This document shows positions 48,070-58,238 of a stretch of DNA of 64,000 nt, piece after piece. The position numbers and the translations under genes were made by a program. Position 1 is the stretch's first letter, and the number at the start of each line of letters is the position of its first letter. The notes under the pieces are model-generated. The model ran no database searches and was not told the DNA's origin. It saw only the letters and a list, made by a program, of their open reading frames with translations. The DNA is from an uncultured Nitrospiraceae bacterium (GTDB lineage Bacteria; Nitrospirota; Thermodesulfovibrionia; Thermodesulfovibrionales; SM23-35): assembly GCA_963727775.1 (NCBI GenBank), contig CAVSHB010000001.1, forward strand, positions 480,001 through 544,000. The letters run 5' to 3'.

Positions 48070-49051
48070 ATGTTCAATGATAAAACTATTTTAATTACCG
48101 GCGGAACAGGATCATTCGGTAAGAAATGTACTGAAATCATTTTAAAAAGATATAAACCCAAAAAACTGATAATCTTCAGTCGTGATGAACTGAAGCAGTT
48201 TGAAATGGCCCAGACATTTTCGGATAAAAAATATTCTTGCGTGCGTTATTTCATCGGTGATGTGCGCGATAAAGAACGTCTGTATCGTGCTTTTCAGGGG
48301 GTGGATTACATAATCCATGCAGCAGCATTGAAGCAGGTCCCTACTGCGGAATATAATCCTTTTGAAGCGGTAAAAACGAATATTATAGGCGCGGAAAATA
48401 TCATTAACGCTGCAATCGATAAGGGTGTAAAAAAAATTATCGCGCTGAGCACCGACAAAGCGGCAAACCCCATTAATCTTTACGGGGCAACGAAGCTCTG
48501 TTCGGACAAATTATTTATTGCCGGAAATGCCTATGTCGGTAGAGAAGATGCTGTTTTCAGCGTTGTCCGTTACGGAAACGTTGTGGGGAGTAGAGGAAGT
48601 GTGGTCCCGTTTTTTTTGAAACAAAAAGAGACAGGAGTTCTGACCATTACGGATCCCAGGATGACACGTTTCTGGATAACCCTCGAACAGGGAGTAGATT
48701 TTGTACTGTCCTGTCTTGAACGAATGGTTGGAGGAGAGCTCTTTGTGCCTAAAATTCCGAGTATGAATATTATGGACCTTGCAAAGGCAATTGCGCCGGA
48801 ATGTGAGACAAAAATAATAGGAATCCGCCCCGGAGAAAAATTGCACGAGGTCATGGTCCCAAAAGATGAAGCAAGAATGACATTGGATTTTGGAACGCAT
48901 TATGTAATACAGCCGGATTTCAGATTTTTTATACGGCGGTTTGACGCCAAAACCGGTAAGCCGGTTACCGGACGATTTCGAATATAACTCTCAAACGAAT
49001 ACATGCTGGCTGACAGTTGAAGAATTGAAAGAAATGATAAAGATGATATGA
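48070..49051 (+). CDS. pseB: UDP-GlcNAc 4,6-dehydratase (inverting) PseB, with apparent 1-nt insertion at about 48964
   Basis: [24 protein letters not shown] and YGATK. The C-terminus PDDFEYNS..W continues in another frame to 49051. Confidence 0.92.
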
Positions 49052-50268
49052 AAGTTGTCCCTTACAGCAGACAAGGCATTGATAAGGGAGATATTCAAGA
49101 AGTTGTAAAGGTCTTAAGAAGTGATTTCATTACGCAGGGGCCCAAAATACCTGAATTTGAAAAAGCGCTTGCAAAATACTGTGGTTCTAAATATGCAGTT
49201 GTTTTTAATTCAGGGACGTCGGCGTTGCACGGTGCATATTTTGCCGCCGGACTCAAAAAAGGGAATGAGTTCATTACATCTCCGATTACGTTTGTTGCCA
49301 CTTCCAACGCGGGGTTGTATCTGGGAGCAAAGCCGGTTTTTGTTGACGTTGAAAGGGACACAGGCAATATAGATGTAAACAAGATCGCGGCAAAGATCAC
49401 GGAAAAGACAAGGCTTTTGGTTCCGGTCCATTACGCAGGGCATTCGGTTGACCTGAACAAAATCAACGCCCTTGCAAAAAAGCACAACCTCACCGTTATT
49501 GAAGACGCCTGCCATGCACTGGGCGCTAAATATGAAGGAGAAAAGATAGGAAGCTGCAAGTATTCCGATATGACTGTCCTAAGCTTTCATCCTGTAAAGC
49601 ATATTACCACAGGAGAAGGCGGCGCGGTCCTCACGAATAAAAAAGATTATTATGAAAAGCTTTTGATGTTCAGAAATCACGGTATTACTAAAGACAGATC
49701 ACGATTCACGGTTCACGATTCACAATTCACAGGCGACTGGTATTACGAAATGCAGCTGCTGGGCTATAACTACAGGATGACGGACATACAGGCTGCACTC
49801 GGGATTTCACAGCTCAAAAAACTTGATTCATTCGTTGAAAAAAGAAGAGCCATAGCAGACTTTTATAACAAAGCTTTCAAAAACAATCCTTATTTCGAAA
49901 TCCCTACCGAAAAGGATTATGCTTATTCATCATACCATCTCTATCCGATAAGACTAAAAGATAAATATAAAGGCAAAAAAAATATGCTTTTTGCTGACTT
50001 GCGGGGAAATGGCCTCGGTGTCCAGGTGCATTACATACCTGTATACCGGCAACCCTATTACAAGGCCTTGGGATACAAGAAGGGTTTATGTCCTGCTGCA
50101 GAAGATTTTTACCATGGAGAGATAAGCATCCCTATCTATCCGGGGATGAAAGAAGAAGATATGAGATATGTAATAGGAAAGTTGAAACATGCATTTGATT
50201 TGACGGACAAACATATTTCAAAAAAATCAGAGATGCAAGGCATGTCCCTTGCGAAACTCTTAAGCTAA
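49048..50268 (+). CDS. pseC: UDP-4-amino-4,6-dideoxy-AltNAc transaminase PseC
   Basis: PYSRQ.I, TQGP, SFHPVKHITTGEGG and GVQVHYIPV. Confidence 0.92.
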   Translation: MKVVPYSRQGIDKGDIQEVVKVLRSDFITQGPKIPEFEKALAKYCGSKYAVVFNSGTSALHGAYFAAGLKKGNEFITSPITFVATSNAGLYLGAKPVFVDVERDTGNIDVNKIAAKITEKTRLLVPVHYAGHSVDLNKINALAKKHNLTVIEDACHALGAKYEGEKIGSCKYSDMTVLSFHPVKHITTGEGGAVLTNKKDYYEKLLMFRNHGITKDRSRFTVHDSQFTGDWYYEMQLLGYNYRMTDIQAALGISQLKKLDSFVEKRRAIADFYNKAFKNNPYFEIPTEKDYAYSSYHLYPIRLKDKYKGKKNMLFADLRGNGLGVQVHYIPVYRQPYYKALGYKKGLCPAAEDFYHGEISIPIYPGMKEEDMRYVIGKLKHAFDLTDKHISKKSEMQGMSLAKLLS

Positions 50269-50386
50269 AAATTTCCCCGAGTTCTTTTGCATTTATTTAT
50301 GCACGTCTTTTCTTGATTGAAGAAGAAATTAAATATGCAATAAAAACTATCCGAGAACAATTTGATCAATTAATTCTTAAAATTTT

Positions 50387-57089: not shown

Positions 57090-57182
57090 GATGGTCTGCG
57101 TATTCTGCTGGATCAGCAGGCGGTTACTTTTTTTGATCATTAAGAACTCATAGGAAAAGGGACTTTGTCGGGAGATGAGATT

Positions 57183-58238
57183 ATGGAAATCATGATAGAA
57201 AACAGGAAAATATGTAGAGAATCTCCAGCCTTCATAATTGCTGAGATGTCCGGCAATCATCTGCAGGATTTTAAGCTTGCAGTAAGTACCATCAAAGCCA
57301 TGAAGGAAGCAGGCGCAGATGCCGTCAAGCTTCAGACCTATACGCCTGATACCATTACCATTGATTCTGACAACGAATACTTTCAGATAAAACAGGGGAC
57401 TATATGGGACGGTAAAACCCTGTATCAATTATATCAGGAAGCATATACTCCATGGGAATGGCAGCCGAAGCTGAAAGAGATCGCAGAAGATTTGGGGCTT
57501 ATATGTTTTTCATCCCCGTTTGACAAAACCGCTGTGGATTTTCTTGAAGCAATGAATGTCCCGGCATATAAAGTTGCTTCTTTTGAAATAACAGATATTC
57601 CACTTATAGAATATATCGCTTCAAAAGGCAAGCCCGTTATAATTTCAACAGGTATAGCAACATTGTGTGATATAGAAGAAGCTTTGAATGCATGTAAAAA
57701 AGTGGGAAATGAACAGATTGCATTATTTAAATGTACATCAGCCTATCCAACCCCATTAGAACAAGTAAATTTGAAAACAATCCCTAATTTAGCTGAAACT
57801 TTCAAAACAATAGTAGGACTCTCGGACCATACATTAGGCATTTCCGTTCCGGTAGCAGCAGTGGCGCTTGGAGCAAAAATCATAGAGAAGCACTTTATCC
57901 TCGACAGAAAGCTCGGCGGCCCGGACGCGGCCTTTTCACTTGAGCCTGAAGAGTTTAAAGCAATGGTGACTGCAGTGAGAGAAGTTGAAAAAGCTTTGGG
58001 CGAAGTCAGCTATGAATTGACAGACAATACAAAGAAAAGCAGGGAGTTTGCGCGCTCGTTGTTTGTCGTGAAAGATATGAAAGCAGGAGATGTATTTAAC
58101 GAGGAGAATATTCGCTCCATCAGGCCTGGATATGGAATGCCCCCGAAATATTTTTATGCTCTCCTCGGACAGAAGGCATCACGGGATATTCCTCGTGGGA
58201 CTCCCTTAGATTGGGGAGATATTGCTCAAAAGAAATAA
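57183..58238 (+). CDS. pseI: Pseudaminic acid synthase
   Basis: IIAEMSGNH, KLQTYTPDTIT, AYTPWEW, GLSDHT and a C-terminal SAF domain. Confidence 0.93.
   Translation: MEIMIENRKICRESPAFIIAEMSGNHLQDFKLAVSTIKAMKEAGADAVKLQTYTPDTITIDSDNEYFQIKQGTIWDGKTLYQLYQEAYTPWEWQPKLKEIAEDLGLICFSSPFDKTAVDFLEAMNVPAYKVASFEITDIPLIEYIASKGKPVIISTGIATLCDIEEALNACKKVGNEQIALFKCTSAYPTPLEQVNLKTIPNLAETFKTIVGLSDHTLGISVPVAAVALGAKIIEKHFILDRKLGGPDAAFSLEPEEFKAMVTAVREVEKALGEVSYELTDNTKKSREFARSLFVVKDMKAGDVFNEENIRSIRPGYGMPPKYFYALLGQKASRDIPRGTPLDWGDIAQKK

Follow-up and report, generated by a model that had tools for sequence, protein, structure and literature searches.

Pseudaminic acid (Pse), a sugar that resembles sialic acid, is built by the pseB-C-H-G-I-F pathway, in which PseH, a GNAT acetyltransferase, acts on the C4 amine that becomes N7 of the finished sugar. 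We analyzed a 64,000-nt window of contig CAVSHB010000001.1 from an uncultured Nitrospiraceae bacterium (coordinates are positions in this window, except those written G000:C1, which are contig coordinates of the source genome, and those following a locus name such as L009, which refer to that locus) and found a Pse gene cluster with another protein in that operon position and with the same proposed target. This protein of 784 amino acids joins an ATP-grasp ligase to a KamA-like radical S-adenosylmethionine (SAM) enzyme. Unlike PseH, it has no GNAT fold, is predicted to depend on ATP, and would have its donor made on the same polypeptide. The explanation that we favor, at a probability of about 0.5, is that the fusion makes an uncharged beta-amino acid and attaches it to give an N7-(beta-aminoacyl) pseudaminic acid, N7 being the most likely acceptor.

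The closest described relatives of the C-terminal half are KamA of Clostridium subterminale (structure 2A5H) and the TIGR00238 family, which includes AblA, EpmB, and the glutamate and arginine 2,3-aminomutases. They have in common with the fusion (E 9e-26 to 2A5H) the radical SAM motif, GGD, the carboxylate-binding Arg, the SAM-binding Gln, and the lysine that holds pyridoxal 5′-phosphate (PLP). The fusion differs from 2A5H, whose residues were counted on the alignment of the two proteins, in having His at Y287, Phe at Y290, and Val and Met at D293 and D330, in lacking the zinc-site Cys268, and in its fused ligase and glycan context. The N-terminal half shares its fold (TM-score 0.77–0.80) with the ATP-grasp L-amino acid ligases BL00235 (3VOT), RizA (4WD3), and BacD and with the uncharacterised 4DIM. 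The end motifs are alike (DIGLRNGG against EVGARIGG); however, identity is about 20%, and the acceptor is an amino acid there and, by prediction, a sugar amine here. In the blasticidin S pathway, where BlsG and BlsI reportedly act, a beta-amino acid from a KamA-type enzyme is likewise amide-linked to a 4-amino sugar, whereas its product is a secondary metabolite, its substrate is charged, and its enzymes are separate. The papers cited here by PMC number were covered in excerpts. Beta-arginine occurs in blasticidin S (PMC5572114), and acyl-group swaps on amino sugars offer a comparable precedent (PMC6519341). SfmE (SO_3265) of Shewanella oneidensis is an ATP-grasp protein encoded in a NeuB-containing cluster and needed for full flagellin modification (PMC3765264); the excerpt names no aminomutase with it. 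The excerpt of PMC6519341 makes no mention of a 3-amino acyl group in a Flavobacterium O-polysaccharide, and this candidate parallel was dropped.

The preliminary description of this DNA, made from the letters of the window, had reported one stop-free open reading frame (ORF) of 784 codons at 54735-57089, between pseG and pseI, and this reading held. Hidden Markov models (Pfam, NCBIfam) recognized both of the domains that it had proposed, ATP-grasp in the first ~400 amino acids and KamA-type from about amino acid 430. An assembly artefact, the danger that it had named, is ruled out by 59 other full-length relatives and by an independent run that bridges the interdomain junction. Among 102 homologue matches, 59 span 98-100% of the fusion at 42-68% identity, with lengths of 753-835 amino acids in 58 of them; the remaining one, P0058, carries an extra formyltransferase domain. 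The bridging contig, from run X1, crosses 55908-56078 with no indel, and no indel inside the fusion was listed for the contigs of four runs. In the AlphaFold model, the mean predicted local distance difference test score (pLDDT) was 89, and the sole low-confidence segment was the linker at amino acids 407-417. The full-length fusion was absent from all 60 related genomes examined; its distribution is therefore patchy, and it probably moves sideways. No holder of the fusion was listed in RNA data, the KamA half had no match at E 1e-40 in a plasmid collection, and the ESM Atlas returned generic radical SAM clusters only. Full-text literature searches, with most subscription journals and supplements outside their scope, yielded no description of the fusion or of a beta-aminoacyl nonulosonate among the papers listed, and nothing on the aminomutase subfamily was found in excerpts of PMC11284099, PMC13317340, PMC7253198, PMC10639138, PMC3694923, and two preprints. 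A Legionella match in the literature was a glutamate-1-semialdehyde aminomutase, which is unrelated. The fusion is real, and it is undescribed in the literature searched.

The C-terminal half matched TIGR00238 (KamA) at E 7e-36 and was the only strong KamA match in the genome. As first described, the CxxxCxxC motif lies at 56271-56294 (C513, C517, and C520), TGGDP and NQTVLLRGVND are present in this half, and a candidate PLP lysine, K727, is found in TSIGK; it aligns with the PLP lysine K337 of 2A5H. Besides the cluster cysteines, the fusion keeps R522, D560, R586, Q648, Y678, and K727, the counterparts of R134, D172, R198, Q258, Y288, and K337, and all of these positions are invariant in 59/59 aligned proteins. 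The two aspartates that bind lysine are gone, D293 being replaced by V683 (56781-56783; Val in 59/59) and D330 by M722 (56898-56900; Met in 58/59). Asp occurs in 0/74 subfamily rows at the first site and in 0/73 at the second (two further rows were too short to cover the sites), and EF-P-linked outgroup enzymes, aligned there without a gap, have Asp at both sites in 5/5. The aminomutase half of the fusion is therefore very unlikely to act on lysine. According to PMC3965090, these aspartates bind lysine, and glutamate 2,3-aminomutase has Lys and Asn in their place. That signature is not found either, and the fusion scored 106 bits with TIGR04368 against a cut-off of 650. The cut-offs for lysine aminomutases were also missed (TIGR00238, 123.8 against 199.2; TIGR03820, 114 against 525; TIGR03821, 121 against 369), as was that for arginine 2,3-aminomutase (TIGR04468, 114.6 against 600).

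Lys, Glu, and Arg had headed the substrates suggested at first, and they found no support, since Val and Met stand where their side chains would be bound. A product carrying a beta-lysyl, beta-glutamyl, or beta-arginyl group is very unlikely: it would agree with the JGI label 'lysine 2,3-aminomutase' on relatives, with the fusion being the only KamA-type gene in the genome, and with an Asp two residues past M722 in 34/59 relatives, but this protein has Ser at that position, both the Asp/Asp and the Lys/Asn signatures are absent, and no equivalog cut-off is reached. The automatic label on subfamily members is probably wrong. Because neither signature fits and all family cut-offs are widely missed, the substrate is likely an uncharged amino acid. 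Side-chain sizes allow a guess at an aliphatic, middle-size substrate, leucine- or methionine-like first, as the former lysine pocket is lined with Val, Met, and Phe but still has room. Alanine and 2-aminobutyrate are possible too. The adenylation domains of partner clusters were tried as a guide to the substrate without giving a code that we could assign confidently. In a quick tree of 94 rows, with support from the SH-like approximate likelihood ratio test (SH-aLRT) and no bootstrap, the subfamily forms a 79-row clade (99%) on a stem of 1.27 changes per column, within which the fusions make up one clade of 15 rows (SH-aLRT 100%). A different fusion, P0066 (745 amino acids), joins a D-Ala-D-Ala-ligase-like ATP-grasp domain to a KamA domain that retains LAM_C; the place of D293 is apparently taken by Gln.

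In the N-terminal half, profiles identified ATPgrasp_N (PF18130) at amino acids 24-95 (E 1e-7) and a PurT-like region (E 2e-17). K107, K147, E185, E194, and R279 are invariant among the 59 aligned relatives, and position 275 is Asp or Glu. The predicted structure shows the three domains of the ATP-grasp fold, and the lysines that bind nucleotide and the acidic residues that bind metal are in place. The best solved relatives by sequence were 4DIM (E 7e-28) and the L-amino acid ligase 3VOT (E 4e-15), and Foldseek with the model gave the same two (E 2e-30 and 7e-27, respectively). The fold is like that of the L-amino acid ligases, and the score with their profile NF053745 was 26.7 bits against a cut-off of 850.

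The neighborhoods of relatives were surveyed in a genome scan over 30 of the 64 parts of the collection, which gave 78 loci (66 subfamily and 12 outgroup), and in a metagenome scan with the ligase half, which gave 34 further loci, 27 of them used. Of the subfamily genes, 50/66 have an enzyme that activates carboxylates no more than 3.5 kb away, compared with 0/12 outgroup genes; the query proteins for this count were taken from the same loci, and kin are not independent. These activators are of four kinds: a fusion-type ATP-grasp domain, fused in 7 loci and adjacent in 3; a PaaK-type ligase in 29; in 4, an adenylation domain accompanied by DUF4910 or an AAC(3)-like transferase; and actinomycete peptide ligases plus adenylation domains in 7. 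A DegT aminotransferase is present in 23 of the 66 subfamily loci and NeuB in 22. Both fused domains were seen in 12 other loci, six of them pseudaminate clusters (L005, L008, L009, L010, L091, and L092) and six dTDP-amino-sugar or glycosyltransferase clusters (L006, L007, L014, L087, L089, and L099). The arrangement pseF-pseG-fusion-pseI is found again in L008, L091, and L092, which belong to two separate subclades. In L036, the slot between pseG and pseI holds a PaaK-type ligase, a hexapeptide acyltransferase, and a stand-alone aminomutase, and the genome has no PseH match. The expectation that homologues would be linked to Pse genes was borne out insofar as relatives are tied to amino-sugar clusters and the pseG-pseI slot is used in three other loci; the specificity for pseudaminate was not, as half of the 12 fusion loci lie outside Pse clusters, and the module would therefore be a general amino-sugar acylation device.

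Other arrangements were seen in the same survey. Xylose-isomerase-like TIM barrel proteins (PF01261) precede the fusion or neuB in three loci with no pseG found (L009:7034-7819, L010:9218-9970, and L018), and they may be substitute hydrolases or deacetylases. In four nonulosonate clusters (L046, L049, L053, and L057), the aminomutase is accompanied by DUF4910 and by a free-standing adenylation enzyme whose substrate-binding motif carries Asp-Pro; three of the four also encode an AAC(3)-like transferase. An archaeal subfamily member lies within a nonulosonate cluster of Nitrosopumilus (L032). In Streptomyces (L023, L025, L026, and L041), a subfamily aminomutase is encoded directly 5′ of a PGM1-type ATP-grasp peptide ligase, with a major facilitator superfamily transporter in three; this set forms a compact peptide cluster that is uncharacterised, occurs in cultured strains, and is well suited to finding the substrate.

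The locus that carries the fusion, in a genome that is 96.8% complete, contains the following features.

48070..49043, + strand: pseB, UDP-GlcNAc 4,6-dehydratase (inverting); TIGR03589, 514 bits, above the cut-off of 407.75
49048..50268, + strand: pseC, C4 aminotransferase giving the free 4-amino sugar nucleotide; TIGR03588, 531.7 bits, above 423.5
50387..51040, + strand: Pse-associated methyltransferase; TIGR03587, 161.3 bits, above 112.05
51037..51894, + strand: SpsF-type cytidylyltransferase (CMP-transferase); PF02348, E 7e-29
51704..53502, + strand: 1.8-kb piece, probably inserted, with an alternative spsF 3′ end, a pseG-like stub, the second methyltransferase, and wbqC
52112..52798, + strand: second class I methyltransferase; PF13649, E 2e-13
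52802..53524, + strand: WbqC-family protein, putative glycyl transferase and rival N-acylating enzyme; PF08889, E 1.5e-72
53496..53669, + strand: orphan spsF 3′ end running into the pseG start; 50% identity over 58 amino acids to the SpsF end, E 6e-13
53686..54687, + strand: pseG-like UDP-sugar hydrolase; TIGR03590, E 1e-39, 136.6 bits, below the cut-off of 153.55
54735..55940, + strand: ATP-grasp ligase half of the fusion, amino acids 1 to ~402, L-amino-acid-ligase-like; profile and structure matches
55941..55991, + strand: interdomain linker of low confidence; pLDDT <50 at amino acids 407-417
55992..57089, + strand: KamA-like radical SAM/PLP half of the fusion, amino acids 420-784; TIGR00238 and 2A5H alignment
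57165..58238, + strand: pseI, pseudaminic acid synthase; TIGR03586, 514 bits, above 340.25
58251..61107, + strand: wzm and wzt, ATP-binding cassette exporter genes; PF01061, PF00005, Wzt_C
59267-59719: small nucleotidyltransferase-like gene between wzm and wzt
61111..61665, + strand: hexapeptide acetyltransferase (WcaF/WbbJ-like), second possible acyl transferase; NF007797, E 9e-23, under the cut-off

The pathway orthologues pseB, pseC, and pseI all exceed their NCBIfam cut-offs, and this pseI is the only copy above the cut-off in the genome. The preliminary gene list (pseB, pseC, a methylase, an SpsF-type gene, pseG, and pseI) was recovered in full, and it had overlooked the second methyltransferase and WbqC, which a table in PMC7253198 labels 'putative glycine transferase'. 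The presence of wzm and wzt indicates that the product of the locus is an exported polysaccharide.

From what is observed, namely the fusion, its conserved cofactor residues, its missing lysine-binding aspartates, and the gene order, we hypothesize the following series of reactions. PseB and PseC would produce a UDP-4-amino sugar with a free C4 amine. The KamA-like half would convert an uncharged alpha-amino acid to its beta isomer through a PLP-bound radical, that is, by 2,3-aminomutase chemistry, and the ATP-grasp half would activate the beta-amino acid as an acyl phosphate and acylate the C4 amine (later N7) of the PseC product. PseG, PseI, and SpsF would then lead to CMP-Pse5Ac7(beta-aminoacyl), provided that they tolerate a bulky cationic substituent, and Wzm/Wzt would export the polymer. 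Speculatively, the methyltransferases may methylate the new amine.

Several observations weigh against this explanation, and they are gathered here with the alternatives that they favor. The preliminary description had argued from the lack of pseH in the window. The gene is indeed missing there and in the whole genome (best score 31.9 bits against a cut-off of 93.1), and tblastn of the genome with three PseH-like GNATs from other loci gave no match. This argument is weak, since among 150 genomes of the same order, PseH passes its cut-off in only 5 of the 28 with pseI above the cut-off. Control Pse regions were examined in 20 of the 23 pseI genomes lacking PseH above the cut-off. The genes before pseI encode a GNAT fused to PseG (2), a separate GNAT (2), one more GNAT further upstream, formyltransferases (2), and a PylC-like ATP-grasp protein with a HAD phosphatase (6), with a HAD protein only in a seventh; the remaining regions have no N-acylating candidate in the stretch read. 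Thus, the missing pseH loses force, and the notion that the slot often holds an N-acylating enzyme gains support. A stronger argument than the missing gene is the place of the fusion, given the pseF-pseG-fusion-pseI order in three other loci and the nearby activators of 50/66 subfamily genes. In six of these relatives (L129, L135, L136, L138, L142, and L144), an epimerase, the PylC-like protein, the HAD phosphatase, and pseI recur with no pseH. Judging from these genes, the set could ligate a phosphorylated acid (e.g., phosphoglycerate) and then dephosphorylate it to an N-glyceroyl-type Pse. The PylC-like protein was considered as close kin of the fusion ligase and rejected (E 0.011).

Replacement of PseH is also called into question by two fusion loci, L010, which has the fusion, a true pseH (115.9 bits against 93.1), and two pseF copies, and L014, in which the fusion lies beside wecE and a GNAT. 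Therefore, the module is not in every case a stand-in for an acetyltransferase, and the strict substitution first suggested is not supported. The beta-amino acid may instead be put on another amine, namely, N5 after deacetylation, the amine of the second 4-amino sugar encoded downstream, or a glycyl group that WbqC has attached; N7 would then receive its acyl group from WbqC, from the hexapeptide transferase, or from a distant GNAT. We consider this possible, if unlikely. Besides L010 and L014, it would account for the WbqC and hexapeptide acetyltransferase candidates at this locus, for wbqC in L011, L030, L067, and L095, for the PIG-L deacetylases in 7/66 subfamily loci, and for P0058, whose formyltransferase domain could itself acylate N7. 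A second aminotransferase and a PglF-like dehydratase ~40 kb downstream (G000:C1:577.8-581.5 kb) are another possible source of acceptor, and no PglD above the cut-off was found in the genome, including beside this dehydratase. However, no deacetylase was found at this locus, L008, L091, L092, and a relative's contig are without wbqC, L131 has a GNAT in addition to wbqC, and the fusion occupies the pseG-pseI slot, far from the second aminotransferase.

The chemistry of the KamA-like half may also differ from that proposed. It could act on an amino sugar or on a ligated alpha-aminoacyl sugar, or catalyze another PLP radical reaction, instead of being a 2,3-aminomutase of free amino acids, and the ligase would then add an ordinary alpha-amino acid; amino sugars carrying alpha-alanyl or glycyl groups have been described (PMC3210612). 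The long stem of the subfamily and scores of 106-124 bits against KamA-family cut-offs of 199-650 point in this direction, as do altered residues near PLP (H677 at Y287 of 2A5H and the stretch E498-V504 at T110-R116). Nonetheless, we judge this improbable, as the carboxylate-binding Arg of 2A5H and the PLP lysine are invariant, and in actinomycete clusters with no match for a sugar aminotransferase or NeuB, the partners of the subfamily are PGM1-type peptide ligases and adenylation domains. A further point against our explanation is that no activator lies near 16/66 subfamily genes, 5 of them cut by contig ends and others, several of them alphaproteobacterial, among housekeeping genes. Copies among housekeeping genes with no ligase nearby were observed in L033, L034, L037, L039, L040, L042, and L045.

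The locus is a mosaic, and its assembly probably contains errors. In pseB, a frameshift lies near 48965; the annotated ORF ends at 48987, and the last ~26 codons are in another frame, where the tail matches the PseB ends of relatives (E 3e-8). This break is probably an assembly error, because a relative's contig from run X2 is one base shorter at 48965. The gene fcl (45659-46678) has an odd tail, and at G000:C1 551-580 kb, several glycosyltransferases and the PglF-like gene are each split into two ORFs; together with the pseB break, they indicate indel errors in the assembly. A pseG-like stub from 51872 to ~51965 weakly matches PseG starts (E 0.004-0.01). In a single contig of a relative from run X3 (depth 3.7, short side 77 letters), 51703 is joined to 53503 and continues into pseG. 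G+C in the region of the 1.8-kb piece is 31-34%, compared with 45% in the genome. The simplest reading of these sequences is that the second methyltransferase and wbqC arrived as the 1.8-kb piece and that the arrangement spsF-pseG-fusion-pseI occurs without these two genes; the whole low-G+C block was first considered as the newcomer, and the X3 junction narrowed it to this piece. Elsewhere in the window, 1-9010 and 26535-33672 contain many integrases, insertion sequence (IS) transposases, and a group II intron reverse transcriptase fragment, and a secreted-looking protein (30825-31811) ends in a long tandem array of Gly-Lys-Ser-rich units of 5 residues each. One could suppose from the gene stubs, the pseB frameshift, the many IS elements, and P0004, a copy of the same protein in another assembly that is frameshifted near residue 503, that the fusion is a decaying passenger with no product here. 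We give this supposition hardly any credence, since the catalytic residues are all intact, the contigs of the four runs show no indel in the fusion, and the pseB break resembles an assembly error.

Novelty lies in the class of substrate predicted for the aminomutase and in the proposed role of this enzyme in surface glycans. The radical 2,3-aminomutases in the families and papers compared here act on charged substrates (Lys, Arg, and Glu). We tentatively propose, at somewhat less than even odds, an undescribed radical SAM/PLP 2,3-aminomutase family for uncharged amino acids that would extend across phyla, work with four interchangeable activating systems, and supply beta-aminoacyl groups to surface amino sugars; here, a single polypeptide would give the first beta-aminoacylated pseudaminic acid. 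The fusion offers, in one gene open to direct assay, a cassette that occurs in many phyla. If the proposal is true, a natural enzyme for uncharged substrates would widen the chemistry of radical aminomutases and offer a useful route to beta-amino acids, and the beta-aminoacyl group would make the nonulosonate zwitterionic, probably altering its recognition by phages, hydrolases, and lectins.

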